DNA of 53,373 bases from Clostridiales bacterium (GTDB taxonomy: Bacteria > Bacillota > Clostridia > Oscillospirales > CAG-272): contig JAILLB010000012.1 of NCBI GenBank assembly GCA_024693345.1, forward strand, positions 1 to 53,373, read 5' to 3'. A program made the position numbers and the translations under genes. Under the pieces are notes generated by a model. It saw nothing but the letters and a program-made list of their open reading frames with translations. It had not been told where the DNA came from and searched no databases. Numbering within the stretch: the stretch's first letter is position 1; each line of letters starts with the position of its first letter. Shown piece after piece: positions 6,049 through 20,855 of this stretch.

Positions 6049-6813
6049 CTAAAAGTTGGATTTGATGTATTTTACGCTGATTTCTATCTGTTCTAGCGGA
6101 TGTTTGAATTCTGTTGCGTTGTCCTGTTCAATAAGGAAGTATTTTGTTCCCGCTTTTTTCATCTCAGGAACAATGGTTTTGAAATTCATGTTTCCTTCTC
6201 CGAGCGGAGCAAAGACAGGTTCAAATTTGTTGTCTTCGTTGAGCCTTATCTTGTAGTCTTTCAGATGAACACACTCTATTTTCCCATTGAGTTTTTCTAT
6301 GATCTTATGAATGTCTGCTCCGCCATACTGAACCCAGTATGTATCAAGTGTGAAATTGACATGAGGTGCATTTTCGGTTATGTACTCAAATATTGTCTTG
6401 CCTTCGTATTTGAAAAACTCAAAATGGTGATTGTGATAAAAGAACTTGAATCCTTTTTTCTCCATGTATTCGGCCGCTTTTTCAAGAGAAGCAATTGTCT
6501 TTTCCAGTTCCTTTGGATTTCGGGCTGTTCCCTGGCTCATCGCACCAAGACCTATGTTTCTGCACGAAAAAGATTCATGCTCAGCAATAAGTCTGTCCGT
6601 ATCCCCTGTTATCCTGTCAAAAGCGACATGTGTCAAGACAACAGGAAGGCCTGTCAGCTCCGACACTTTCTTAATTCTTTCGGGGATGAAATCCGCACCG
6701 GAATACTGAACAAAAGATATTCCGATCTCTTTAAGAGCATCCATTGTTTTAAGAAAGGATTTCTCTTCCTTAATCTGGTCTCTCAAAGAATACAAGTTAA
6801 GTCCTATGTCCAT
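6049..6813 (-). CDS. Sugar phosphate isomerase/epimerase (xylose isomerase-like TIM barrel)
   Basis: YHNHHFEF, LDTYW, HLKD, IEQD. Start moved to the ATG at 6813, which has a GGAGG RBS. Confidence 0.85.
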   Translation of the reverse strand: MDIGLNLYSLRDQIKEEKSFLKTMDALKEIGISFVQYSGADFIPERIKKVSELTGLPVVLTHVAFDRITGDTDRLIAEHESFSCRNIGLGAMSQGTARNPKELEKTIASLEKAAEYMEKKGFKFFYHNHHFEFFKYEGKTIFEYITENAPHVNFTLDTYWVQYGGADIHKIIEKLNGKIECVHLKDYKIRLNEDNKFEPVFAPLGEGNMNFKTIVPEMKKAGTKYFLIEQDNATEFKHPLEQIEISVKYIKSNF

Positions 6814-6841
6814 AGAATTTCCTCCGATTCTTTCATTGTTA

Positions 6842-6870
6842 ATTATGTCACACTTTTTTCTCCATGACAA
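6842..6870 (-). promoter_or_regulatory. Sigma-A promoter of the isomerase-oxidoreductase-aldolase operon
   Basis: On the minus strand: TTGTCA-N17-CATAAT with a TGn extension. Confidence 0.6.
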
Positions 6871-6972
6871 CATTTTTTCTTTGTAATCAAAGGCATGTTT
6901 TGGGAAATGGCTGAAAATCTTTTCTGTAAGAAAAAAAGTCGCAAATTTGGTGCTTTTCACATGCATAACGTA

Positions 6973-7001
6973 TTGATAATTTGCATAAAATAGTATATAA
7001 T
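6973..7001 (+). promoter_or_regulatory. Sigma-A promoter of the starch utilisation operon
   Basis: TTGATA(6973-6978)-N17-TATAAT(6996-7001). Confidence 0.7.
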
Positions 7002-7022
7002 AAATGGCGATGGCTCATATGA

Positions 7023-7041
7023 TTTGTGCACAATGCACAAA
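7023..7041. promoter_or_regulatory. Palindromic candidate operator downstream of the starch promoter
   Basis: Perfect TTTGTGCA-CAA-TGCACAAA dyad. Confidence 0.5.
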
Positions 7042-7165
7042 AACAATATCTTGTTTTTTACTCGGGCTATTTTTCGATAACAGATATATGTATCGGCCGT
7101 CGCAATTAAATCATAAACATTTTCGCACTTGGAGAGTGCGGGATTAAAAAAAAGGAGTAAAAATC

Positions 7166-8131
7166 ATGAAAAAAATCATTACTATTCTGCTCGTAGCCGC
7201 AATGGTATTTGTTCTTGCAGCTTGCGGAACCGCCAAAGTTGTTCTTGAAGACAAAACACACGAGTTGTGGGTAGCACATGGCCAGTATCTGCTTGCAGAT
7301 GGCACACAGAACGGATGGAACGGCAAAGATAATTCCCTCTATGAGAAGTCAGCTCTCAAAGCTATCGCTCTCGAAGATGTTAAGGAAATCAGCCAGGATC
7401 TCTACACCACCCTTTCCAAAAAAGATGTTAAGTATCTTTACACAATTGACATCATCGTAGGAACAAATGACGCAGGTTGGTCTTGCAAATTCGTTAAAGA
7501 CGGAAAACTGTACAGTGCTAATGGCTCATATGCAGTTAAGGTAGCTCAGTGCACATCTGACGTAGACGGTGACACAAAGGTATACGCTGAGGAACAGTGG
7601 ATTTCCGATCCTCATACAGCTCACGTAGAGTCACTTACACCTGCTACAATGTTCTATCCTACATGGACAGAAGAAAAAGATGAAAACGGTTTCTCATGGG
7701 CAGACAACCCGGTTGTTACAGGCGGAGCTGGTCTTTACACACTCGTTATCGCTCAGTACAGCAATGCTTCATCAGCAAGCCAGCCCGGATTCGGTGTAGG
7801 TCTTGTTCTCAAAGAAGCTAAAGAAGGCATCGCATACGAAGAAATCAAGACATGGATTCCTGCTGACCACACATATGGTGTTATCGGAAGCTTTGCAGGA
7901 AGCGATTGGGCAACTGATGTTGCTATGACAGCAGCTGGCGACAACACATGGCAGGCTGAAGTAACACTCGCAGCAGGAAATGAACTCAAAGTTCGTGCAG
8001 ACAGCGACTGGACAAACAGCTGGGGCGACAGCGAAGGAAACAACCTCAAGGTTGACGCTGACGGCAAATATCTCGTTAAAATCGTATTCAGCAACGGAGT
8101 AGGAACAGTTACATTATATCCTGCTAACTAA
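7166..8131 (+). CDS. Lipoprotein with a C-terminal SusE/SusF-like starch-binding module
   Basis: Lipobox VLAAC. The C-terminal YGVIGSFAGSDWATDVAMT...TWQAEVTL...ELKVRADSDWTNSWG...GKYLVKI resembles SusE/F carbohydrate-binding modules. The N-terminal ~200 aa is not recognised. Confidence 0.65.
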   Translation: MKKIITILLVAAMVFVLAACGTAKVVLEDKTHELWVAHGQYLLADGTQNGWNGKDNSLYEKSALKAIALEDVKEISQDLYTTLSKKDVKYLYTIDIIVGTNDAGWSCKFVKDGKLYSANGSYAVKVAQCTSDVDGDTKVYAEEQWISDPHTAHVESLTPATMFYPTWTEEKDENGFSWADNPVVTGGAGLYTLVIAQYSNASSASQPGFGVGLVLKEAKEGIAYEEIKTWIPADHTYGVIGSFAGSDWATDVAMTAAGDNTWQAEVTLAAGNELKVRADSDWTNSWGDSEGNNLKVDADGKYLVKIVFSNGVGTVTLYPAN

Positions 8132-8148
8132 TATCTAACTAAACCGCG

Positions 8149-8183
8149 AAGCAAGGGGGCTTTCAAAAGCCTCCTTGCTTTCA
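8149..8183 (+). terminator. Strong intercistronic stem-loop (partial terminator or mRNA stabiliser)
   Basis: AAGCAAGGGGGCT-TTCAAA-AGCCTCCTTGCTT, 13-bp stem with only a short U tail. Confidence 0.6.
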
Positions 8184-8210
8184 TTGAATTTGGAGTGGAG
8201 GCGAAGAAAT

Positions 8211-10205
8211 ATGAAGGTAATACGATTGTTGTGTGCACTTCTGTGTATAGTGTATTTATTGATGGCTTTTTGTTCCTGCGGAGCAAAAATACCGACATTT
8301 GACGACTTTGAAGACAATTATACAGACTCGCTTCCTGAAAAATCCGAAGACGGGTTGACACTTCACGCATTCAACTGGACTTACCGCGAGATAATTGAAA
8401 ATCTTGAGGGCATAAAAAATGCAGGATTTAAAAACATTCTCACAATGCCCGTTCAGCAGCCGAAAGGTGGAGGCGGTTCATGGTGGGCATTCTACCAGCC
8501 TCTCAGCATGAGTATCGGTGACAACTCGAGTCTCGGAACAAAAGAAGATCTCAAAGAATTGTGTGACAAAGCAGAAGAAATGGGCATTGCCATACTCGCC
8601 GACATTGTTGCCAATCACCTGGCAACCACAGATTCTGAAGACAAAGAACCTGACGGAACACCCACCGTATCTCCCACAGTCGAAGCTTACGAACCCGTTC
8701 TGTACAGAAACAGGAACGAAGACACCGACGGAAACGGAATTACGTTCCACCATAATAAAAAAGCAACCGGATCAGGAGCCGAAACACAGTATTACGCATT
8801 TGGAAACCTCCCTGATCTCAACACTGAAAACGCGTATGTTCAAAGCAGAGTACTGAGTCTGCTTGAAGAATGCATTGACGTCGGCATCGACGGATTCAGG
8901 TTTGATGCCGCAAAACACATAGAAACATCAAGCGACCCTGACAATCCTAGCAATTTCTGGGAGAACACTCTCGAGGTCGCAAAAGAATATTACAAAACGA
9001 AAACCGGAAAAGATCTCTATGTCTACGGAGAAATTCTCAATTCCCCGCTGGACAGAAATCTTTCATGCTATACACAATACATGAGGATAACCGATGATGG
9101 TTTTGCTGCTCAGTTCAAAAGTGCGTTTGCCACAAAGAACCCTTCCCTCATATTGAACGCATCCCTGAAAACAGGAGATGCAACCGAACTGATTGCATGG
9201 GTGGAGAGCCACGACGAATATGTGACGACAAACAGCCATTATACCGATGTAAGAGTAGCAAAGCTTTGGTCAGTAATAGCAGCCAAAACAGGTCTAGGCG
9301 GATTATATCTTGCAAGACCCACTGCAGACCTTACAGTTGGACAAATCGGTTCTTATGCATTTGAAAGCGAATACGTCGCAGTATGCAATCGCTTTCACAA
9401 CAGATTCTATGACGCGAATTCTTATGAATCGGTCGACGGAGTCTACTATATTAATGAAAAAATAAAAGAGAGCGACCAGGGTGCCTTGATACTAAGTCTT
9501 GACACAGTTGACCCAAGCGTAACAGTAACCGTTGCCGTTCCTCACCTTGAGGACGGAAATTACTACGATGCGTTGACAGGACAGTTAATCGTCGTATCAG
9601 ACCATGTTGCATACGTCCAATTCGAGGTTAACGGCATGGCCATTCTCACAAGAACACGCCAGCCTCATCCGCAGCTGGACATCTCAGACCGTGATTGCTC
9701 ATTCGTTGAAGACAAACAGATAACAATCAATGTAAAGAATGCCGAAGAAGCATATTACTGGTTCGGCGACAATGAAAGTGCAAAACAGGCAATCAATTCC
9801 AAGGCAGTTGTTTCCCTGAAAGACCATGTTGAAAACGGCGTATGCAAACTTCACATTTATCTCAAAAACGGAAACAACATTTATGAACGCACATTTACTT
9901 ATACAATAGTTGAGCTCATCGGAGACAAGTTCAACGTAATCAATCTGGATAATCGCTATTTAAACGGCGACTATGAGGTATATATCTGGAGCTGGGAGCC
10001 CGGACGCTGGAGCAAGAATTACACAATTGAAAACGGTGTCATGCTTGTTGACACAACCGGAATGAAGGGATTCCTCATTGCAGTATTTGAAAAAGGATAT
10101 GTAATTGAAAATCCCAACAAGTGGGATTCAGGCGTAATAAAACAGAGTTCGGATATTATCATAGCAACCAATACGTCCGGATTTGTAGACATGACCGGAT
10201 TTTAA
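8211..10205 (+). CDS. Lipoprotein alpha-amylase (GH13, AmyE-like) with a C-terminal starch-binding-like domain
   Basis: Lipobox FCSC; LHAFNW, YQP, GFRFDAAKH, YGEIL and WVESHD GH13 motifs; YIWSW CBM26-like motif. Start placed at ATG 8211 after GGAG. Confidence 0.85.
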   Translation: MKVIRLLCALLCIVYLLMAFCSCGAKIPTFDDFEDNYTDSLPEKSEDGLTLHAFNWTYREIIENLEGIKNAGFKNILTMPVQQPKGGGGSWWAFYQPLSMSIGDNSSLGTKEDLKELCDKAEEMGIAILADIVANHLATTDSEDKEPDGTPTVSPTVEAYEPVLYRNRNEDTDGNGITFHHNKKATGSGAETQYYAFGNLPDLNTENAYVQSRVLSLLEECIDVGIDGFRFDAAKHIETSSDPDNPSNFWENTLEVAKEYYKTKTGKDLYVYGEILNSPLDRNLSCYTQYMRITDDGFAAQFKSAFATKNPSLILNASLKTGDATELIAWVESHDEYVTTNSHYTDVRVAKLWSVIAAKTGLGGLYLARPTADLTVGQIGSYAFESEYVAVCNRFHNRFYDANSYESVDGVYYINEKIKESDQGALILSLDTVDPSVTVTVAVPHLEDGNYYDALTGQLIVVSDHVAYVQFEVNGMAILTRTRQPHPQLDISDRDCSFVEDKQITINVKNAEEAYYWFGDNESAKQAINSKAVVSLKDHVENGVCKLHIYLKNGNNIYERTFTYTIVELIGDKFNVINLDNRYLNGDYEVYIWSWEPGRWSKNYTIENGVMLVDTTGMKGFLIAVFEKGYVIENPNKWDSGVIKQSSDIIIATNTSGFVDMTGF

Positions 10206-10220
10206 TCGGAGGAGAGTTTC

Positions 10221-12992
10221 ATGAGAAACAGTTTTAAACTAATAATCGCTATATTGCTGCTTGTTGCATTGTCGATTTCATTTATCGGATGCGGCGCGAC
10301 AAGTCAAGAAGAAGGACCTGACGATGTACCGATTCAGCTTGTAAAAGCAGGAGATGTAATTGATAAATATAAATTCGACAGCACAGATTATTCTTCTCTG
10401 CCTGAATCAAAGACAACAACTGTAAGGCTTCACTACAGAAGAAATGATGACAGCAACAACGACCGCAGCTCATATCAGGCCTGGAACGTCTGGGCATGGG
10501 ATATGACAAACGGCGGAAATGGTGCAGCATATGACTTCACGGGTTATGACGATTACGGAGTATATGTAGACCTCAAACTTGACGTAATATCTGACGGAAA
10601 AGAAATCAGTTTGCTAGGATTCATTGTCCGCACGGATAACTGGTCAAAAGACCCCGACGGAGACCGTTCAATAGAAATCGCAGAAACCACTCCGGGCGGA
10701 ATTCAGAACGTATATGTAAGAACCGGAGAGTCCACAATTTTTGACACTCAGGACAATGCGTGCAAGTCCATTGTAAGCTATGCAATGCTTAAATCGTCCA
10801 AAAGAATCAGCGTGTATTTCAAGCCGTTGTCAAACGAATTCAAGGCATATGCCCCAAGATTTTATGTGACTGTCAATGGTGAAGACTATACGAAGTTCAC
10901 ATTGGACCAGTATGACTCTTCCCTGAAAAAGGTTGATCTTATCCTTTCAGACGATATAGACATCTCTGATGTTGTTACAGTCAGTTACCGATTTGACCCG
11001 ACATGGATAAACAAGGTTTCTCTTATGTTTACAAATTACTACGACACAGAAGAATTTGATCAGAAATATTCCTACACCGGAACCGATTTAGGTGTGTCCT
11101 TTGACGATGAAACAAATGTTACAAAGACAACATTCAAGGTCTGGGCACCGACAAGTACTAAAATGGTACTGAACCTTTACAACACCGGTGACTACATGAC
11201 AGAAAAAACTCCGTATGCCACATTTGACATGACAAAAGGAGAAAAAGGTGTATTCTCATACACTGCAAACGAAGATCTTGACGGAAAGTATTACACTTAC
11301 ACTGTAACAAACTCAAAAGGAACAAACGAAGTTGTCGACCCATATGCAAAGAGTGCCGGTGTAAACGGCAGACGAGGAATGGTTGTCAATTTCACCAAAC
11401 TCAATGCATCTATAGAAGGATGGAGTTCTGACACTAGACCGTTTGCAGGAAACAACACAGATGCTGTCATATACGAGATTCATGTCAGAGACATGACAAT
11501 CAGCGAAACAAGCGGAGTATCCGAAAACAACAGAGGCAGATTCTTAGGCTTGGCTGAAACCGGAACAACATATACAGAAGATGGTGTTGTTGTATCTACA
11601 GGCCTTGATCACTTAAAAGAACTCGGAATCACACATGTACAGATTCAGCCGTTCTACGATTACGCGACAGTTGATGAAACAACTTCTGACACAAAAATGT
11701 CGGAAACAAATTACAACTGGGGATATGATCCTTTGAACTATAACGTTCTTGAAGGCAGCTACTCAACTGATCCTTATGACGGATATACAAGAATCAAAGA
11801 GTTTAAAACCATGGTTATGGCAATGCACCAGGCCGGCATTTCAATCAACATGGATGTTGTGTATAACCACACAGGACCTTCAGAAAACTCAAACCTCAAT
11901 CTGCTTGTTCCCTATTACTACTACCGCACAAAGGCGAACGGAACATTCTACAATGGTTCAGGATGCGGAAACGAACTGGCTTCCGAACGCTTCATGGTCA
12001 ACAAATTTGTCAGAGAGTCATGCAAGTTCTGGACAGAAGAATACCACCTGTCAGGATTCAGATTCGACTTGATGGGACTCATTGACAATCAGACAATGAT
12101 AGACATTTACAAAGATTGTTCCGCAATATATTCAAATGTAATGGTATACGGCGAACCATGGGCAGGCGGAACAACAAAACTTAAATCAGGCACAAGCGCA
12201 CAGAACCTGACTGAACAGATGACCGTTCAGGAATCAGTCGCACAGGATTATTTCTCCGGAAGCGGCGTTCTGGTCGGTGCATTCAATGATGTTATTAGAA
12301 ACGCAATCCGCGGCGACAACAGTCCCGGCAAAGGCTATGTTCAGGGAGACTCAATGAACGCTTCAATCATTGCAATGTGTCTTGAAGGAAGATTCTCCAA
12401 AGGAACAATAAAAGCGCGTGATATAGATCCGAATCTCGTAATCAACTATGCTTCATGCCACGACAACTACACATTGTACGATCAGCTTGTTCAGACAATA
12501 AACGGAAGCACTCTGAAAGTGGCATATACTCAGGCCGAAGCACTTGTTCTCTTCTCTGAAGGTGTTCCTTTCATTCAGGAAGGCGAAGACTTCATGCGCA
12601 GCAAATACAATGCAACCACCGGCAAGTATGACGGAAACTCATATATTTCCGGCGACTATGTAAACGCAATGGATTACTCCTTGAAAGTAAAGAATCACGA
12701 CCTGTTTGAAAAGGTTAAAGAACTAATTGCAGTCAGAAAAGCTGAAAGCGCACTTAGACTTGCTTCCAGAAGTGAAATAAGCGAAAAACTCAAAGATGTC
12801 TCCTTCGCAGGTGGTGTTATCAGCTACTCAGTTGATGATGTAATTGTCATCCACACCATAAATGAAACAACGTTCAAACTTGACGGAACATATGAAATTG
12901 TTTATTCCAACATTCGCGATGTATACGGAACTATAGATTCAGAAATCACCCTTTCAGCAAACGAATCCGTACTTATCAAAAAGGTTGGCTGA
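10221..12992 (+). CDS. pulA: Lipoprotein type I pullulanase (CBM41, CBM48, GH13)
   Basis: Lipobox FIGC; N-terminal CBM41-like VRLHYRR...WNVWAW...GFIVR; FKVWAPT; YNWGYDP signature; GFRFDLMG, YGEPW, CHDN. Confidence 0.92.
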   Translation: MRNSFKLIIAILLLVALSISFIGCGATSQEEGPDDVPIQLVKAGDVIDKYKFDSTDYSSLPESKTTTVRLHYRRNDDSNNDRSSYQAWNVWAWDMTNGGNGAAYDFTGYDDYGVYVDLKLDVISDGKEISLLGFIVRTDNWSKDPDGDRSIEIAETTPGGIQNVYVRTGESTIFDTQDNACKSIVSYAMLKSSKRISVYFKPLSNEFKAYAPRFYVTVNGEDYTKFTLDQYDSSLKKVDLILSDDIDISDVVTVSYRFDPTWINKVSLMFTNYYDTEEFDQKYSYTGTDLGVSFDDETNVTKTTFKVWAPTSTKMVLNLYNTGDYMTEKTPYATFDMTKGEKGVFSYTANEDLDGKYYTYTVTNSKGTNEVVDPYAKSAGVNGRRGMVVNFTKLNASIEGWSSDTRPFAGNNTDAVIYEIHVRDMTISETSGVSENNRGRFLGLAETGTTYTEDGVVVSTGLDHLKELGITHVQIQPFYDYATVDETTSDTKMSETNYNWGYDPLNYNVLEGSYSTDPYDGYTRIKEFKTMVMAMHQAGISINMDVVYNHTGPSENSNLNLLVPYYYYRTKANGTFYNGSGCGNELASERFMVNKFVRESCKFWTEEYHLSGFRFDLMGLIDNQTMIDIYKDCSAIYSNVMVYGEPWAGGTTKLKSGTSAQNLTEQMTVQESVAQDYFSGSGVLVGAFNDVIRNAIRGDNSPGKGYVQGDSMNASIIAMCLEGRFSKGTIKARDIDPNLVINYASCHDNYTLYDQLVQTINGSTLKVAYTQAEALVLFSEGVPFIQEGEDFMRSKYNATTGKYDGNSYISGDYVNAMDYSLKVKNHDLFEKVKELIAVRKAESALRLASRSEISEKLKDVSFAGGVISYSVDDVIVIHTINETTFKLDGTYEIVYSNIRDVYGTIDSEITLSANESVLIKKVG

Positions 12993-13407
12993 TATGTTTA
13001 AAAAAGGACAGATCAGCACTGAAGTGGACAAAGGACCATTTCTGTTTTCACTTATCGCTTTTGTCGGAGGCACAGCAACAGCAGTACTCCTGTTTGTTCT
13101 GGGAAACGGCGATGCACTGGCAATATTTGCCGGAATCATGATTTCCGTTGTAGCAGTTGTGTCAGGCGCCATACTGTTTGCAGTTCTCACGGACAAAGCA
13201 TATATAGACAATGGTATCCTTTATATGTCCTACCTCTTTAAAAGACGTTCCATCCCTGTAAAGGAAATCGCAAAAATTGAACTTCGCAATGAAGTCTATT
13301 CCGTCTATAACAAAAGCGGAGCAATTGCGGGTACAATCAATGCAAAACTCACTTCGGTCGGCGACATAGTAATGGAGCTGGACAAAAGTGGCGTAAATTT
13401 CGTGTAA
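12985..13407 (+). CDS. Hypothetical membrane protein (2 TM plus a short bacterial PH-like soluble tail)
   Basis: Two hydrophobic segments followed by [17 protein letters not shown]. Overlaps or abuts the pulA stop (ATG at 12994 is also possible). Confidence 0.55.
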
Positions 13408-13441
13408 AAAAATAAATTTTTATAAATGCCTGGAGGATAAT

Positions 13442-14599
13442 ATGGCAAATCTTAAGCTTTCCCATATTTGCAAGGTCTATGACAACGGACGTAAAGCCGT
13501 AAATGATTTATCAATAGACATAGCTGATAAAGAGTTTATTGTTTTTGTCGGACCATCCGGATGCGGAAAGTCAACTGCACTGAGAATGATTGCAGGACTT
13601 GAAACAATTACTTCCGGTGAACTGTACATAGGCGACACCCTTGTAAATGACATGGAACCAAAAGACCGCGATATAGCAATGGTATTCCAGAGTTATGCTC
13701 TATACCCTCATATGTCGGTATATGAGAATATGGCATTCGGGCTCCGAAATCGCAAAATGCCCGAAGAGGAAATTAAAGAACGGGTCATGAAAGCTGCCAA
13801 GATACTCGACATAGTCGACTACCTGGACAGCAAGCCGAAAGCAATGAGCGGCGGACAAAGACAGCGTGTCGCACTTGGACGTGCACTTGTTCGTAACCCG
13901 AAAGTATTCCTGCTCGATGAACCGCTTTCAAACCTGGACGCAAAGCTTCGTGCAACAATGCGTTCTGAAATTACAGCTCTTCACAAGAGTCTGGGTGCAA
14001 CATTCATTTATGTTACACACGACCAGGTTGAAGCCATGACAATGGGCACAAGAATAGTTGTCATGAAGAATGGTTTCGTTCAGCAGATTGATTCTCCTAT
14101 GAATCTGTATAACCATCCGCACAATAAATTTGTTGCAGGCTTTATCGGAACACCTCAGATGAACTTCTTTGATGTCACGATGAAGAAAGACGGAGACAAT
14201 GTTTCTGTTTCACTTTCAAATGGTGAAAGCATTTCTCTTCCCTGTGAAGTTGTATCTGAATTTGACAGCAGTTATGTTGACGGCGGTAAACCTGCTATTC
14301 TGGGCATACGTCCTGAACACATAGATATAGCCAAAGACGGCGAAGGATTCAAATTCATAGTCACCAACGTTGAACGCCTTGGAAATGAGACAATTGTTTA
14401 TGGTAAACTCGGCGATCATCTCGGCGAATTCACGGTAAAGGACGAAGGAAATGGCATTGTGGTCAAACTGATTGACGATGAAAGCGTCTCTGTCGGAGAT
14501 GTCGTCATGGCTAAACCAAGATTGCAGAAACTCCATTTCTTTGATGCTGAAACTGAAGTTAATCTCTTGAGCAAGGAATCACCGAACACTGATGAATAA
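13442..14599 (+). CDS. msmX: Sugar ABC transporter ATP-binding subunit (MalK/MsmX)
   Basis: GPSGCGKS Walker A, MSGGQRQR signature, [16 protein letters not shown]. Confidence 0.92.
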
Positions 14600-15245
14600 T
14601 CCCTCTCAAGACGAAAGAGTCCGAATTGAGCCAAATTCAAAGCCCTATTTGTTCAAACGATTAATATCCGATGCTTTTGACATTCTTGTTGTATTTATTC
14701 TTTTCATGGTATTGTCTAATGTCTTGTTGTCGACGCCTCTGGCCAACACATACAATGAACACTATGACAATTACAAAGCAATAGAACGCAAGGTTGTTGA
14801 GCAATACGAAGACGACACAAAAGCAATAAGCGATGCATTGAATAATGATTCATACTACTTGGATGAACGTTTTGCTGCAAATCTTCACAGTTATCTTTTG
14901 AAGCTGTTTGCGGGATTCATTGCAGAAGCAGTTGTATTTCTCATTTTCCCTCTCATCTTTAAAACAAGAGGAACGCCGGGCAAACTGCTCATGAGAATAA
15001 TGCCGTTTTGTGAAAGAAAGCAGACAAGGGCTACGATACCTTCAATTATCGGAAAATTTGCATTTGTTTTCATTATAGACAGTGCTTTCCTGTATCTGTT
15101 CACCGGAATTTATACTTTTATTCTTGTTCCGGTCATCAGATTGGTTGAAATGCTGTTGAACAAGAAAAACAATACAATATGTGACGCTGTAAGCGGCGTT
15201 ACGATGATAGAACAATTATCCTATAACGGAATTTACAAATTTTAG
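14592..15245 (+). CDS. RDD family membrane protein
   Basis: KRLISDAFD at the N-terminus, [18 protein letters not shown]; overlaps the msmX stop. Confidence 0.65.
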
Positions 15246-15256
15246 GAGGAATAACT

Positions 15257-16684
15257 ATGAAAAAGGTTATTGCATCAATTTTAGTTTTGATTATGTTCGT
15301 AACAGTTCTTTCCAGCTGCGGAAGCTCAAGTGGCACAAACAATGTTATCCGCGTATGGGTTGGTGAAGAATCAGTAAGCTTCTACAAAGCTGTTTGCGAA
15401 GAGTATCTTGCTGCACACGAAGACTTTGGCTTCACAATCGATGTCAAGGGAATGGACACAGGTTCTATTGCAGGAACAATAGCAACCGACCCGAAAGCAG
15501 CTGCAGACATCTATACAGTCGCACATGACAATATCGGTAAACTTGCCGCTACTGAATGTGCAAAACCGATTGGTGATCAGTCACTTATTGATCAAGTACT
15601 TGCAGACAATCCGGAACCTTTCCAGAACGTTGTTTATTCAACTCTGAATGGACAGAAATATCTGTTTGCTGTTCCGTACATTTCACAGGCACTTTTCCTG
15701 TACTACAACAAAGCACTTGTTACAGAAGAACAGGCTGCTTCATTTGAAGGCTTAAGAGAAGCTGCAATCGCAGCAAATACAAAAGCTGTAACTGTTACAG
15801 GCGATGACGGATACAACATGTCATTCGCTCTCCTTGCAACAAAGGTATCAGACCACAGCACAACAGTTAAGATTTACGAAGGTGCCGAATCAGTTTCAGG
15901 CGGCACTAAGGGAACAAGCAACTGCCAGGGCGACGACACAATCGCAATTCTGAGATGGCTTCAGGACTATGCTGAAGATCCGAACGGATTCAAATGGGCA
16001 TCTCCGGATGGTTGGGACGCTGATCTTGACAAGAACAATAAAGGTGTTCTTGCAGTTATAGGCGGTGCTTGGCACTACAATACAGCAAAAGCAGCTCTTG
16101 GTGAAACAAACCTTGGAATAGCACTTATTCCTACACTGACACTTACTGCATCTTCAGTTGAAGGTCTTACAGGTGTATCAGCTGGTGACGTTTACAGAGG
16201 CGGTACATTTGCAGACTGCAAATGCTTCATGATTAATGCTAACTCTGCAAAAGAAAAATATGCTAAAGAGCAGGAATTGATTAAGTTCCTGTCCAGCAAG
16301 GAAATCCAGAATCGTTCTTTCCTTGAATGTCTGAATGTTCCTGCATATGTTGGTGCATCACAGTTTATTGAACAGTGCTACAATGAAGGAAAAGTTACTG
16401 AGAGCCAGTACAGCCTTGCTGCATATCAGGTAAGCATGGCTGAATGGGGTATTCCTCAGCCGTTCATCACAGGTACTCTCAACACATACTACTACTCAAA
16501 GAATGCTCCTGCAGTATTCCGTGCAATAATTGACAAGACAGCATACCCGACAACAGGTGATGTTATCATTCCGGAAACAAACACACTCGAAGGCATCCGC
16601 AAGGCTCTGTACCTCATTGAATATATCTGGATGCATGGATCAAATCCGAAATCATTCCCTGACACATTACCGGCTTCTGCATAA
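15257..16684 (+). CDS. Maltodextrin ABC transporter solute-binding lipoprotein (MalE-like)
   Basis: Lipobox LSSC; ADIYTVAHDNIG, ALFLYYNK, IGGAWH motifs; operon context. Confidence 0.85.
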   Translation: MKKVIASILVLIMFVTVLSSCGSSSGTNNVIRVWVGEESVSFYKAVCEEYLAAHEDFGFTIDVKGMDTGSIAGTIATDPKAAADIYTVAHDNIGKLAATECAKPIGDQSLIDQVLADNPEPFQNVVYSTLNGQKYLFAVPYISQALFLYYNKALVTEEQAASFEGLREAAIAANTKAVTVTGDDGYNMSFALLATKVSDHSTTVKIYEGAESVSGGTKGTSNCQGDDTIAILRWLQDYAEDPNGFKWASPDGWDADLDKNNKGVLAVIGGAWHYNTAKAALGETNLGIALIPTLTLTASSVEGLTGVSAGDVYRGGTFADCKCFMINANSAKEKYAKEQELIKFLSSKEIQNRSFLECLNVPAYVGASQFIEQCYNEGKVTESQYSLAAYQVSMAEWGIPQPFITGTLNTYYYSKNAPAVFRAIIDKTAYPTTGDVIIPETNTLEGIRKALYLIEYIWMHGSNPKSFPDTLPASA

Positions 16685-16730
16685 TCAAAGCGGATATAGT
16701 AACTCAATTGATTTTTAATTGGAGGATAAT

Positions 16731-18185
16731 ATGGGTAAGGAGAAAAAACTGTCCCATGATGCCAAAAGTACGACCTTCTTAGAAGATGTAAGGAATGCGT
16801 TTTCCACTTTTAAGAAAAGGCTTGTAGATGGTTCTATAGGCACGAAGTTGTCGCACTTAATATTTGGCGTGGGCAATTTACTTCATGGTCAGATTATCAA
16901 AGGCTTGTTATTCTTATCGCTTCAGGCGGGAATCCTGGCAATCATGATATTGTGTCCTACAATAAATGATACCCCATACGGGTGGAAGGCACTTGCCAAT
17001 CTGTCGCTTAAGAATGTCACGGTAGGCGGTGAGTTTGATCCTCTTACAGGAGAGATGACCATCGGATCCGACTGCAAGCTGATGATACTCTTTGGATTTG
17101 TTACCATAGCACTTATAGTAATCTATTTCCTGATATGGAATTTAAATATCAACTCTTCATACAAAGCAGACTTAGCTAAGAGAGCAGGCAAAAAGCCTAC
17201 CACGTTCAGAGAAGATTTGCGCGAATTGTTTGATGGCAAGTTTTACGTTCTTATGCTTACACCTACGTGTATTGCCGCAACAATTTTCACTATATTGCCA
17301 ACAATCTTCATGATTTCAATCGCTTTCACGACGTACAATCAGCAAGACATGAACGAACTCCACACCAATCTGTTTGGTTGGAACGGATTCCAGAACTTTG
17401 TGTCAGTATTTACGGGTGAAGGATCACTCGGTATGGAAATCAACAACCGATTCCTGCCTGTTCTTGGTTGGACATTCATCTGGGCTATTTTAGCTACACT
17501 GACCTGCTATTTCGGAGGCATTATACTTGCCCTCCTGATCAACAAGAAGGGCCTCAAGGGCAAAAAGATCTTCAGAACAATCTTCATTCTCACGATTGCT
17601 GTTCCGCAGTTCATTTCACTTCTGGCTGTTCGTAACATTCTCGGAGAATACGGACCGATTAACACATTGCTGTTGAACTGGGGCTGGATAACGGAACCGA
17701 TAGGATTCTTGGGACTGAAACCCGGAGACAGTGAACTACTGGCTAAGGTGATGGTCATAGTCATTAACATGTGGGTGGGTATTCCCTACACCATGCTGAT
17801 GACATCGGGTATCTTAATGAACATACCTACTGACCTCTATGAGGCGGCAAGAGTTGACGGAGCGTCGACCACAAAGATGTTCTTCAAGATTACGTTGCCA
17901 TACGTAGTATTTGTCACCACTCCGTATCTGATATCAAGCTTTGTAGGCAACATCAACTCGTTCAACTCCATTTACCTGTTGACGGGCGGTGGACCGACGT
18001 ATACAGGATATCAGGCAGGCGGAACCGATCTTCTGGTTACATGGCTTTACAAGGTTACGATTGATCAGGGTTCGTATAATACGGGTGCCGTCATAGGCAT
18101 ATTCACGTTCATTATAACAGCAACAATCACCCTCATAACCTACAGACGAAGCAAAGCATATAATGAGGAGGATACTTTCCAATGA
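16731..18185 (+). CDS. Sugar ABC transporter permease (MalF-like)
   Basis: Multiple TM segments; WVGIPYTMLM, DLYEAARVDGA (EAA loop), GGTDLLVTWLY. Start at ATG 16731 after GGAGG. Confidence 0.9.
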   Translation: MGKEKKLSHDAKSTTFLEDVRNAFSTFKKRLVDGSIGTKLSHLIFGVGNLLHGQIIKGLLFLSLQAGILAIMILCPTINDTPYGWKALANLSLKNVTVGGEFDPLTGEMTIGSDCKLMILFGFVTIALIVIYFLIWNLNINSSYKADLAKRAGKKPTTFREDLRELFDGKFYVLMLTPTCIAATIFTILPTIFMISIAFTTYNQQDMNELHTNLFGWNGFQNFVSVFTGEGSLGMEINNRFLPVLGWTFIWAILATLTCYFGGIILALLINKKGLKGKKIFRTIFILTIAVPQFISLLAVRNILGEYGPINTLLLNWGWITEPIGFLGLKPGDSELLAKVMVIVINMWVGIPYTMLMTSGILMNIPTDLYEAARVDGASTTKMFFKITLPYVVFVTTPYLISSFVGNINSFNSIYLLTGGGPTYTGYQAGGTDLLVTWLYKVTIDQGSYNTGAVIGIFTFIITATITLITYRRSKAYNEEDTFQ

Positions 18186-19114
18186 AAGATAATGTTAAAG
18201 TTAAAAAGTTCAAAAGCCAGACAGCTAACAGGCGTATTGGTCTGGGTGTAACTTACACCATGCTGATTGTCGGCGGAATAGTTTGGCTGATCCCTCTTAT
18301 TTGGATATTCCTCTCAGCTTTCCGCTGCGAATACCAGGACGGAACGTTTATCGGTCGTGTAACCAGTAACTTCTTCCCTAATGCAGTAGGTTTCGAGAAT
18401 TTCAGACTTCTGTTCACATCTACTTATTACGGTGTTGAAGGAGCATTCCTGAAATGGATGGGCAACACTCTTTTGATAGCAGCTATTGACTGTGTCATTT
18501 CAACTCTGCTTGTATTGTCCGTTGCATACTGCATGTCAAAGCTCAGATTCAAACTGAGAAGAGCGTTTATGAACATGTCCATGATTATCGGACTGTTCCC
18601 AGGCTTCATGAGCATGATAGCCATCTACTTCCTGCTTAAATCCATAGGACTTACCGGAAACCCTGCACACCCGGAATACTCGGTAATCGGCCTTATATTC
18701 GCGTACAGCGCAGGAGCTGGACTCGGGTTCCAGGTGGCCAAAGGCTTCTTTGATGTCATCCCGAATGCACTGGTCGAATCGGCAAAACTAGACGGATGTT
18801 CTAACTCAAAGATTTTCTGGAGAATCATCCTTCCGCTCTCAAAACCGATTATCATATATCAGGCATTGATGAGCTTTACCGGACCTTGGATGGACTTCAT
18901 TTTTGCAAAGGTCATCATAGGAGCAGATAACGCTCAATACTGGACTGTATCGGTTGGACTTTACTCGATGCTGTTCGGAACACATCCGGATACCAACCTG
19001 TTCACACAATTTGCTGCAGGATGCGTAATAGTGGCAATACCTATCGTTTCATTGTTCATGTTCTTGCAGAAGTATTATGTTGAAGGTGTTACAGCTGGCG
19101 CTGTAAAGGGTTAA
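18182..19114 (+). CDS. Sugar ABC transporter permease (MalG-like)
   Basis: ALVESAKLDGC EAA loop, WTVSVGL, QKYYVEGVTAGAVKG. Confidence 0.9.
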   Translation: MKDNVKVKKFKSQTANRRIGLGVTYTMLIVGGIVWLIPLIWIFLSAFRCEYQDGTFIGRVTSNFFPNAVGFENFRLLFTSTYYGVEGAFLKWMGNTLLIAAIDCVISTLLVLSVAYCMSKLRFKLRRAFMNMSMIIGLFPGFMSMIAIYFLLKSIGLTGNPAHPEYSVIGLIFAYSAGAGLGFQVAKGFFDVIPNALVESAKLDGCSNSKIFWRIILPLSKPIIIYQALMSFTGPWMDFIFAKVIIGADNAQYWTVSVGLYSMLFGTHPDTNLFTQFAAGCVIVAIPIVSLFMFLQKYYVEGVTAGAVKG

Positions 19115-19147
19115 TCGACAATAATCGACACTGAATAGTCTATAATC

Positions 19148-19187
19148 AAAAAGCACTGAGCCATCATTATGGTTTCAGTGCTTTTTT
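19148..19187. terminator. Bidirectional intrinsic terminator ending the starch operon
   Basis: AAAAAGCACTGA...TCAGTGCTTTTTT inverted repeat between convergent genes. Confidence 0.85.
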
Positions 19188-19225
19188 GTATTTTTATGAA
19201 TACTTCTGAGTTAGGTCGCTTTTGT

Positions 19226-20236
19226 TTAGCCCATCATTGATGAAAGACGCGGGGAAAGAGCCTCTTTGAAGAGTGCCAGGAAAATTACATCAGCATAATC
19301 GCGCTGGCCCTCAATGCTGTAGAAGTATTGATTGAGTTGGAACTTGGATGCGACGGGATGTGCTTCCTGTTCATCCTCGTGCATATAGCGCGAAGTCGTC
19401 TGGGCTCTTGCAGTGAGATTGTCACCTAAATAAATGTCATAGGAAATGGACACACCCTGCCCTTTTCCATATTGAATGTGAATCTTGTTAGCATCCAGAT
19501 ATTCGGTCATTTCCACGCCGTCAAATGTAAATCCCTCAGATACGGTAGTGTACTCGCTTCCTGCAGAGCTGACGTGTCCGACCTTATGTTCTGTCTCGGT
19601 TTGGCGCACGTGATCTGTAAATACATATGTATTTGCACCAACCGGATTCATTTTGGTCATCTTGCCCTCATAGAGCAAAGCGCGATTTTCGTCTTCCAGA
19701 TAAAAGCGGAGTTTGACATGTGTCTTTGTGTCCCAGGCAAAGAACATTTTTGTCGGTTCGCCGATTGTGCGACCGCTCTCAGTGATTACAGGTGCGGAGC
19801 CAATTTCTTTTTTCTTCTTGATTGAACGGATCATATTAACGATGTTCACAACTGCTATAACAGCACATACAGCTGCACCAGCAAACAAAAGTATAACAAT
19901 ATCTACTGATTTTTTTCCTTTGATTACAGAAGGATTGGCAGGATCGTAAAGAATCGTGATTTCTTTGCCTACTGAGTAACTGAATTCGAATATATTGAGC
20001 TGTACATGTTCATAACGATGCCCATCAATGGTATAGTCGACATATACCTCATGCGCCAGTTCTTCGTCTGGCGCAATATATTTAATTTCAGATATTGTAG
20101 CTGTCGTTTCAACGTAATTGTCTTTTTTGTTCGACATCATCAAAACACCAACGACAACCAGCAATACTGCCATAACAGCTGTAATGAGTGTTATCATAAT
20201 TCTGCGATAACGATTTCCTAATGTGTGTAGTTCCAT
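19226..20236 (-). CDS. DUF3592-like membrane protein with a C-terminal soluble (LURP-one/scramblase-like) region
   Basis: TM, then ETTATI...YVDYTIDG...GKEITILYDPANP, then TM (the DUF3592 pattern). Start at ATG 20236 after AAGGAG. Confidence 0.55.
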   Translation of the reverse strand: MELHTLGNRYRRIMITLITAVMAVLLVVVGVLMMSNKKDNYVETTATISEIKYIAPDEELAHEVYVDYTIDGHRYEHVQLNIFEFSYSVGKEITILYDPANPSVIKGKKSVDIVILLFAGAAVCAVIAVVNIVNMIRSIKKKKEIGSAPVITESGRTIGEPTKMFFAWDTKTHVKLRFYLEDENRALLYEGKMTKMNPVGANTYVFTDHVRQTETEHKVGHVSSAGSEYTTVSEGFTFDGVEMTEYLDANKIHIQYGKGQGVSISYDIYLGDNLTARAQTTSRYMHEDEQEAHPVASKFQLNQYFYSIEGQRDYADVIFLALFKEALSPRLSSMMG

Positions 20237-20394
20237 ATGCACTCCTTGATATGCTTTAAACTATACCCTAATTATATACGACCGAACACCTTTATACAAA
20301 TTGAAAAAACGTCAGATTTTTTGTGTAAATCTTACAAAATTATCTGTCCCTGACAAAAAAGCGAAAACAATATCATAATATTTTTCATGTTCTC

Positions 20395-20423
20395 TTGACA
20401 CTTGTTTTATACGCGTGTATAAT
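20395..20423 (+). promoter_or_regulatory. Consensus sigma-A promoter
   Basis: TTGACA(20395-20400)-N17-TATAAT(20418-20423). Confidence 0.8.
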
Positions 20424-20456
20424 TAACTCAAAGTGAAATGTCCAGGGGGCGATAAA

Positions 20457-20855
20457 ATGAAAAAATTACCGGATACAGAATATGAAGTAATGAAGGCAGT
20501 GTGGGATAATACACCGCCCGTTACAACCACCATGATTATGGAACAAATTGGTAATGAACACGGCTGGCCGGTACCGGCACTGATTACCATGCTTACACGT
20601 TTAAATGAAAAAGGATTTCTCTACTCTGAAAAGAAAGGCAAGATGAGATACTACTACCCGCTCATCAAGAAGCAGGACTATATCGAATTTGCCACAAGAG
20701 ATTTCATGCAGAAATACCACAATGATTCCTTTACAAGTTTCTACTCCACTTATTATGATGTCCGAATGATAAGCGATGAAGCACTTGACAAATTTGTCGC
20801 TTGGGTCAAGAACCGTCGCGGCGAATTCAGAAGATATCATTCGGATAATCAGTAA
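20457..20855 (+). CDS. BlaI/MecI/CopY family transcriptional regulator
   Basis: LPDTEYEVMKAVW...W...TMLTRLNEKGFL...YYYPLI. Start at ATG 20457. Confidence 0.85.
   Translation: MKKLPDTEYEVMKAVWDNTPPVTTTMIMEQIGNEHGWPVPALITMLTRLNEKGFLYSEKKGKMRYYYPLIKKQDYIEFATRDFMQKYHNDSFTSFYSTYYDVRMISDEALDKFVAWVKNRRGEFRRYHSDNQ

Follow-up and report, generated by a model that had tools for sequence, protein, structure and literature searches.

The window analyzed here, positions 1 to 53,373 of contig JAILLB010000012.1 of a Clostridiales bacterium (assembly GCA_024693345.1), carries what is, judged from its sequence, a nine-gene operon for starch binding, cutting, debranching, and import in an uncultured rumen Firmicute. 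We consider it likely that this operon is a self-contained cassette for the utilization of starch or other alpha-glucans by a monoderm cell and that it works as proposed below. Two points appear to be new. The operon begins with a putative starch-binding lipoprotein of an uncharacterized family, and the cassette is spread patchily among rumen bacteria.

Nine co-oriented open reading frames (ORFs), the number given by the original prediction, fill positions 7166 to 19114 of the forward strand, on which all operon features described below lie. They are tightly packed, with intergenic gaps of -8 to +79 nucleotides (nt). In order, they encode a lipoprotein of 321 amino acids (aa), here called P1; a GH13 alpha-amylase; a type I pullulanase; a protein with two transmembrane (TM) helices; a MalK-type ATPase; a probable RDD-family protein; a solute-binding protein; and MalF-like and MalG-like permeases.

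Enzymes, importer, and proposed pathway

The alpha-amylase (8211 to 10205; lipobox FCSC) matches PF00128 at 69 bits and contains GH13 regions I to IV with the catalytic Asp, Glu, and Asp (DIVANH, GFRFDAAKH, YGEIL, and VESHD), in agreement with its original assignment. Its best solved relatives are Ruminococcus bromii Amy16 (E value of 1.5e-52) and then Bacillus subtilis AmyE, which places it in the AmyE/Amy16 type, and its C-terminal extension matches no Pfam family. We set its start at ATG 8211, preceded by GGAGTGGAGG, rather than at TTG 8175. The pullulanase (10221 to 12992; lipobox FIGC) combines PUD and CBM48 modules with a GH13 catalytic domain and scores 571.7 bits against TIGR02104, above the equivalog cutoff of 504.5, so that its classification as type I also stands. 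Its closest solved relatives are Bacillus type I pullulanases and R. bromii Amy10/12, with 2wan and 6jeq as the best matches.

These are the only two GH13 enzymes in the genome with export signals. The remaining three GH13 genes, encoding a branching enzyme, a cyclomaltodextrinase-like enzyme, and an alpha-glucosidase-like enzyme, lack signal peptides. On another contig (C106:64-4169), a GT35 alpha-glucan phosphorylase gene lies directly ahead of the cyclomaltodextrinase-like gene, and this pair is likely to be the intracellular end of the pathway.

The transport genes have the composition of a CUT1 (MalEFGK-type) importer, namely, a binding protein, two BPD_transp_1 permeases, and an ATPase with a MalK-type regulatory domain. 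The ATPase (13442 to 14599), of the MalK/UgpC or MalK/MsmX type, contains ABC_tran, OB_MalK, and TOBE (TOBE_2) domains. The binding lipoprotein (15257 to 16684; lipobox LSSC) belongs to the SBP_bac_8 family, and its nearest solved relatives are the CUT1 protein 4ua8, MalE1/MalE2, and MalE of Lactobacillus casei and Thermotoga. We take 4ua8 to be EUR_01830 of Eubacterium rectale. From its context and its weak similarity to solved MalE-type proteins, the binding protein is probably specific for maltooligosaccharides. The MalF-like permease (16731 to 18185), which has a long N-terminal extension and whose start was reset to ATG 16731 with TGGAGGA ahead of it, and the MalG-like permease (18182 to 19114) were both assigned by domain and family matches. 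The ABC importer with a MalE-like binding protein that had been predicted is thus borne out by all of its parts.

Two small membrane proteins complete the set; neither was among the products named in the original prediction. The first (12994 to 13407), of 137 aa, contains two TM helices and ends in a small domain with weak signals of a bacterial PH domain, and we reset its start to ATG 12994, 1 base past the pullulanase stop codon. The second (14592 to 15245), of 217 aa, is a probable member of the RDD family: PF06271 is matched by all 17 aligned orthologs (best E value of 3.5e-10), and the window copy itself falls below the threshold (15 bits against a cutoff of 24.1; E value of 0.03). The position of both genes is kept in related loci.

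Read at the level of sequence, the pathway is coherent, running from cutting and debranching outside the cell, through import, to phosphorolysis and hydrolysis inside it. The bind, cut, debranch, and import division of labor first proposed for the locus fits its domain content, the sole exported GH13 pair of the genome, and the cytoplasmic partners encoded elsewhere. We propose that four products would be exported, lipidated by Lgt and LspA at the lipobox cysteine, and thereby anchored to the outside of the cytoplasmic membrane. P1, probably in excess owing to a conserved hairpin behind gene 1, would capture alpha-glucan chains through its X25 module and perhaps also through its novel N-terminal domain. 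The amylase would then cut alpha-1,4 bonds and the pullulanase would remove alpha-1,6 branches. The MalE-like lipoprotein would hand the resulting maltooligosaccharides to the MalF/MalG-like permease, driven by the MalK-type ATPase of the operon, and the cytoplasmic GT35 phosphorylase and cyclomaltodextrinase-like enzyme would complete the breakdown. The RDD-family and PH-like membrane proteins would be accessory parts.

The cassette may instead be a scavenging system whose natural substrate is soluble alpha-glucans, such as maltodextrins released by primary degraders or microbial and protozoal glycogen, rather than plant starch granules. Several features are in keeping with this: there is a single amylase and a single debranching enzyme, no granule-binding modules of the CBM26 or CBM74 type were recognized, the amylase C terminus has no Pfam match, and the genome is small (2.03 Mb). 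Branched dextrins and glycogen-like glucans are typical substrates for type I pullulanases, which suits the same picture. However, X25 and PUD/CBM41-type modules are known from degraders of granular starch such as R. bromii (PMC9112005), and the best solved relative of the amylase, Amy16, comes from that species. We regard a restriction to soluble glucans as possible but doubtful, and we retain starch and other alpha-glucans together as the proposed substrates.

The P1 lipoprotein and lipid anchoring

P1 (7166 to 8131; lipobox LAAC) consists of a novel N-terminal domain of ~200 residues and a C-terminal X25-type module which, in the structural model, is formed by the last ~85 residues (~235 to 321). 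A search of a large protein collection returned 292 homologs, all metagenomic, some of which carry the NCBI name [quoted passage not shown] The family is strongly conserved. The lipobox cysteine is invariant, as are W248, W262, W282, and W286 in the X25 part.

The AlphaFold (AF2) model of the whole protein has a pLDDT of 90.9. When it was compared with the PDB by Foldseek, the top match was X25-2 of R. bromii Sca5 (E value of 2.8e-5), followed by SusF (4fe9; 3.1e-4) and SusE (4fch; 4.8e-4, with a second SusE match at 1.2e-3); beyond Sca5 X25-2, SusF, and SusE, this search found nothing below an E value of 0.01. At the level of sequence, a marginal match to 5x5s (E value of 0.2) was the only one to a solved structure. 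PF22058, the X25 family, is recorded for many P1 homologs.

The description of P1 as "SusE/F-like" therefore survives for the fold of the C-terminal module, but two thirds of the protein is an unrelated domain. P1 has one X25 module and lacks the tandem X25 modules that follow an N-terminal Ig-like domain in the SusE/SusF family, and the Pfam models SusE and SusF_SusE do not match it even at E values of ≤5. The N-terminal domain (residues 26 to 232), modeled separately with a pLDDT of 94.3 and a pTM of 0.90, has no PDB fold match better than an E value of 0.4 and no Pfam match even at E values of ≤5. When a profile of this domain was searched against 1.84 billion representatives, only 218 clusters were recovered. 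Its partners in larger proteins are a dockerin with BspA-type leucine-rich repeats (LRRs), a Ser/Thr kinase with X25 and SH3, or SBP_bac_5. Because its partner domains are so varied, it behaves as a mobile extracytoplasmic module, and it is most likely a ligand-binding one.

Several homologs depart from the plan of P1. Two have lost the lipobox and have another mode of anchoring, with an N-terminal extension that in one (L049:8699-10864) combines leucine-rich repeats with a dockerin-like repeat and a signal peptide and in the other (L057:1146-2912) contains a TIR-like cytoplasmic domain and one TM helix. Two others of 519 to 524 aa (P0113 and P0117) have an additional domain of ~170 residues past the X25 module. 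Many homologs have Thr/Glu/Pro-rich linkers past the lipobox.

Starch binding by P1 is suggested by the modeled X25 module. X25 modules are starch-binding units in SusE/F and in Sas20/Sca5 (PMC9112005). The same work weighs against a simple transfer of this function: X25 modules of R. bromii Sas20/Sca5 failed to bind when taken singly (PMC9112005), and one such module may therefore not suffice for binding by P1; as a second caution, P1 of the window scores 23.7 bits against PF22058, below the cutoff of 27.

P1, the amylase, the pullulanase, and the binding protein all begin with a basic N terminus, a hydrophobic stretch, and a lipobox followed by glycine at position +2 (LAAC|G, FCSC|G, FIGC|G, and LSSC|G, respectively). 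All four fit both the PROSITE and the G+LPP-type patterns, and the lipobox cysteine is retained in essentially every homolog of each protein across related loci, as would be expected if the four lipobox products named in the original prediction are indeed lipidated. The genome also encodes Lgt (PF01790, 234 bits; C35:2551-3762) and LspA (PF01252, 131 bits; C64:14180-14737).

A different fate, in which the lipoboxes go unused and signal peptidase I processes the enzymes, so that they escape into the medium, draws on the sequences FCSC of the amylase and FIGC of the pullulanase, which are less canonical than L-A/S-A/G-C. This is the least probable of the alternatives that we considered and in our view very unlikely, since the cysteine that closes the hydrophobic stretch is kept so widely in all four proteins, glycine follows it in each, both lipobox patterns are satisfied, and both processing enzymes are encoded. 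We therefore continue with lipid anchoring as the presumed state of the four proteins.

The genome (2.03 Mb, 96% complete) places this anchoring in context. About 130 of its ORFs fit the Gram-positive lipobox pattern, many of them 500 to 1,300 aa long, including a series of binding proteins of ~520 aa. Searches of the genome found no sortase (Pfam model), no credible LPXTG protein (regex patterns), no dockerin, and a single SLH match. No Omp85/BamA was found in it either, so that no outer membrane is expected and the "Gram-positive-type" label applied at the outset is correct. The surface proteome is apparently dominated by lipoproteins, and lipid anchoring appears to be the default way in which this organism holds proteins at its surface. 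The original prediction had treated lipoprotein tethering as unusual for such a locus; given Lgt and LspA, the ~130 lipobox ORFs, and the absence of sortase and dockerin, it is not peculiar to the starch genes, and that part of the claim falls.

Intraoperon hairpin and regulation

A promoter-like site (TTGATA, 17 nt, TATAAT; 6973 to 7001) that matches 11 of 12 sigma-70 consensus positions precedes a leader of ~165 nt and is our candidate promoter from this consensus match. At the other end, a hairpin with a U-run (19148 to 19186; -20.3 kcal/mol, z = -5.6) forms an intrinsic terminator; it sits between convergent genes and may act in both directions. The operon had been described as bounded by one promoter and one terminal terminator. 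Both elements are present, but a second, stronger hairpin lies after gene 1, between P1 and the amylase. It consists of a G+C-rich stem of 15 bp followed by the T-rich tail TTTCATTGAATTT (8148 to 8181; -26.6 kcal/mol, z = -4.1) and may be a terminator-like attenuator or a 3' stabilizer.

In 57 of 57 related loci, namely, all those in which both ends of the P1-amylase interval could be located, this interval contains an equivalent G+C-rich hairpin followed by a T-rich tail. Its stem varies in sequence from lineage to lineage while the hairpin is kept, which marks it as a selected feature. The amylase of the window starts only 29 nt beyond the hairpin; this leaves no room for a promoter, so the amylase and the later genes must rely on read-through. 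We propose that the hairpin is probably a partial terminator or 3' stabilizer that raises P1 above the other products.

The same hairpin could instead close gene 1 as a transcription unit of its own, with P1 as a general adhesin or phage target loosely tied to the genes downstream. Its strength relative to the terminal terminator and its conservation would suit such an arrangement, as would the occurrence of the P1 N-terminal domain in proteins with dockerin and BspA-type LRRs, a Ser/Thr kinase, or SBP_bac_5. We think that this is unlikely, because the short interval calls for read-through, P1 adjoins the amylase in nearly every locus, and P1 carries an X25 module with invariant tryptophans. 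A shared transcript with elevated P1 remains our preferred interpretation.

In the leader, a palindrome of 19 nt, TTTGTGCA-caa-TGCACAAA (7023 to 7041), is a candidate operator, and a small hairpin (7121 to 7143; -11.2 kcal/mol, z = -1.6, weak) lies directly upstream of the ribosome-binding site (RBS) of gene 1. None of 30 other loci has this palindrome ahead of P1, and their upstream regions vary by lineage. Genome-wide, the palindrome, as TGTGCA-N3-TGCACA, has one near copy with one mismatch (C23:19532-19548), which is about the level expected by chance, and this copy could be a shared operator or a coincidence. It lies between a divergent gene for a 411-aa coiled-coil membrane protein and an ABC operon encoding a binding lipoprotein, a fused permease, and an ATPase. 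An Rfam scan of positions 6500 to 20500 gave no match at E values of ≤0.1 and thus no known riboswitch or leader.

Five related loci (L002, L003, L004, L009, and L026) have, by eye, an ATCTCC...GGAGAT hairpin before the RBS of P1, ~20 to 60 nt upstream of the start, and the window has CGCACT...AGTGCG at the equivalent place. Such pre-RBS hairpins may act as 5' stabilizers of the mRNA.

Eight related loci (L013, L018, L020, L022, L024, L032, L033, and L058) have a LacI-type gene on the same strand immediately before P1, and these genes are 66 to 95% identical to one another. Four loci (L043, L044, L046, and L050) have GAAAACGTTTTC- or TGAAATCGATTTCA-type palindromes (MalR/cre-like) upstream of P1. 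The operon of the window may be induced by starch, and its genes may be differentially expressed. Two results count against this expectation: the locus contains no regulator gene, and tblastn with the LacI-type regulator of the related loci found no homolog at E values of ≤1e-3 in the 2.03-Mb genome. Starch induction is for these reasons unsupported. The lack of a LacI-type homolog is itself unusual for a sugar-fermenting Firmicute.

The genes flanking the operon encode an AP_endonuc_2 protein, a Gfo/Idh/MocA oxidoreductase, a DUF3592 protein, and a BlaI-type repressor. The last two lie downstream (19226 to 20855). The DUF3592 gene is convergent and encodes a membrane protein, and the repressor, of the BlaI/MecI type, has no obvious BlaR1 partner encoded beside it.

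Distribution and relation to known systems

When a single genome of each species was scanned for related loci, 130 relatives were confirmed and 78 distinct loci were retrieved, almost all of them from genome bins of the rumen or ruminant gut. In ~50 loci the order P1, amylase, pullulanase, TM protein, ATPase, RDD protein, and binding protein, with or without the permeases, is identical to that in the window. Identity to the window products ranges from 57 to 82% for P1, 59 to 87% for the amylase, 65 to 81% for the pullulanase, 74 to 91% for the ATPase, and 66 to 83% for the binding protein. In seven loci (L034, L039, L040, L048, L051, L053, and L054) the pullulanase gene is missing and all other genes are in order. 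Distant versions of the cassette occur in small genomes labeled as Bacilli.

The fixed arrangement invites comparison with the Sus complex. As the original prediction implied, the four lipoproteins and the ABC permease might form one stable membrane complex that binds, cuts, and imports starch, possibly organized by the small membrane proteins; in ~50 loci all parts, the RDD and PH-like proteins among them, strictly occur together and in a fixed order, which agrees with this, and Sus proteins are known to assemble in Bacteroidota (PMC7618045). Co-regulation would explain the conserved synteny equally well, however, the products have no cohesin or dockerin interaction domains, and the absence of the pullulanase from some loci shows that the set is modular. 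A stable complex consequently seems to us quite improbable, somewhat more so than a separate gene 1 unit, and we favor a cassette of co-encoded parts that work in sequence.

Carriers of P1 are scattered. It is found in 1 of 10 other species of the genus, in 6 of 401 genomes (2 of 97 genera) of the family, and in 2 of 401 genomes (2 of 178 genera) of the order. The carriers are labeled as Oscillospiraceae, Lachnospiraceae, Anaerovoracaceae, Erysipelotrichaceae, and Bacilli. The genes that flank the operon in the window recur beside the cassette in no related locus. A tree of P1, amylase, and ATPase has a star-like backbone with inner branches of 0.01 to 0.03, in which nine entries labeled as Erysipelotrichaceae form one clade nested among clades labeled as Clostridia. 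The amylase is 60 to 70%, and at most 77%, identical to that of the window in genomes whose PyrG (CTP synthase) is only 61 to 63% identical.

The patchy carriers, the unshared flanks, the tree, and the comparison of amylase with PyrG lead us to favor horizontal spread followed by vertical descent within lineages, and we regard transfer of the cassette between rumen Firmicutes as probable. The gene order kept in ~50 loci, set beside the few carriers within the family and the order, points the same way. Three considerations temper this view. The closest copies of the operon are in the same genus, family, and order, so that similarity partly tracks relatedness. The taxa under which NCBI lists genome bins can be mistaken. 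PyrG, which we tried as a yardstick of relatedness, separates the genomes poorly, with identities of 60 to 83% even within the order; we set it aside and used the tallies of carriers by kinship. A search for mobile-element borders gave short repeats at chance level and no repeats, direct or inverted, that flank the cassette. Vertical inheritance accompanied by many losses, in place of transfer, seems to us the less likely alternative.

The original prediction placed the locus beside Sus of Bacteroides thetaiotaomicron (SusCDEFG), and the two share a functional division of labor in which surface lipoproteins are divided into noncatalytic binders and a tethered GH13 amylase. The X25 beta-sandwich is common to P1, SusE, and SusF (by fold match; PMC9112005). 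However, the nine products include no SusC (TonB-dependent transporter) or SusD by Pfam and NCBIfam, the host has no outer membrane, and no product matches the SusE/F families; uptake would instead proceed through an ABC importer across the cytoplasmic membrane. P1 also differs from SusE/F in having one X25 module rather than two or three and in its N-terminal domain, and the locus adds a surface debranching enzyme and lacks a SusR-type regulator. The analogy with Sus thus stands for function and not for descent. The locus is analogous to Sus and not homologous to it, and it is a starch locus of the Gram-positive polysaccharide utilization locus (gpPUL) type.

The gpPULs, an established class, combine genes for glycoside hydrolases and for ABC importers in Firmicutes (Sheridan et al. 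2016, PMC5320581). The window locus encodes polysaccharide-degrading enzymes (amylase and pullulanase) and a transport system (binding protein, two permeases, and ATPase), but it has no transcriptional regulator, and the formal gpPUL definition accordingly fails in this genome. As in gpPULs and the E. rectale pathway, an extracellular, cell-bound GH13 enzyme would feed maltooligosaccharides to a CUT1 importer (PMC5320581, PMC8288039). gpPULs are said to lack stand-alone surface glycan-binding proteins and to use enzyme-borne carbohydrate-binding modules instead (PMC10318527). The window locus differs from those described in having a stand-alone binding lipoprotein, lipid-anchored enzymes, and two accessory membrane proteins. 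In E. rectale, Amy13K is sortase anchored; compared with the pathway of Amy13K and EUR_01830, the enzymes of the window are predicted to be lipid anchored and the ATPase is encoded inside the operon.

The R. bromii amylosome is a further point of comparison. It supplies the closest solved relatives of three components (Sca5 X25-2 for P1, Amy16 for the amylase, and Amy10/Amy12 among the best for the pullulanase), and noncatalytic X25 starch binders occur there beside enzymes. Its parts are joined by cohesin-dockerin contacts to a sortase-anchored scaffoldin, whereas each surface part of the window locus has its own predicted lipid anchor.

Clusters of MalE/F/G/K-type importer genes with amylolytic genes are familiar from enterobacterial malEFG and Bacillus mdx, and the B. 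subtilis mdx operon includes a gene for a small membrane protein, yvdJ. In Escherichia coli, a repetitive extragenic palindromic (REP) hairpin after malE, between malE and malF, raises the amount of the first gene product above that of the permease. This element is paralleled by the conserved hairpin behind gene 1 of the operon described here, with the difference that the latter follows a putative starch-binding lipoprotein and not the binding protein of the transporter. The locus further differs from malEFG and mdx in encoding two surface enzymes as well as two accessory membrane proteins of other types. Amylolytic enzymes with N-terminal lipid anchors are known as single enzymes of organisms that have an outer membrane or toga, namely, Klebsiella PulA and Thermotoga maritima AmyA; the lipid tether is shared, and the setting here is a nine-gene cassette of monoderm rumen Firmicutes. 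A literature search for characterized Gram-positive lipoprotein amylases or pullulanases, or for SusE/F-like proteins in Clostridia, found nothing specific.

A more ambitious interpretation would join two claims, that P1 founds a new class of Gram-positive glycan-binding lipoproteins whose N-terminal domain is a new carbohydrate-binding fold acting jointly with the single X25 module and that the cassette, with the RDD and PH-like proteins as parts, is a membrane-tethered complex spread horizontally as a ready-made unit across classes of rumen Firmicutes. In that combined form we think that it is probably wrong, about as unlikely as a separate gene 1 unit. Follow-up would best address the P1 family together with its N-terminal domain, the intraoperon hairpin, the RDD and PH-like proteins, and the habitat-bound, patchy distribution.

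Feed efficiency and acidosis both depend on how starch is fermented in the rumen, and the carriers of the cassette are mostly uncultured. The cassette would provide a compact, easily recognized marker of starch or maltodextrin users among rumen Firmicutes. Stand-alone glycan-binding lipoproteins, thought to be typical of Bacteroidota, are predicted to occur in Gram-positive loci too, and the N-terminal domain of P1, well folded in the model and without known relatives, is a candidate for a new carbohydrate-binding module. The hairpin after gene 1 and the patchy distribution offer testable cases of graded expression within an operon and of gene transfer within one habitat.

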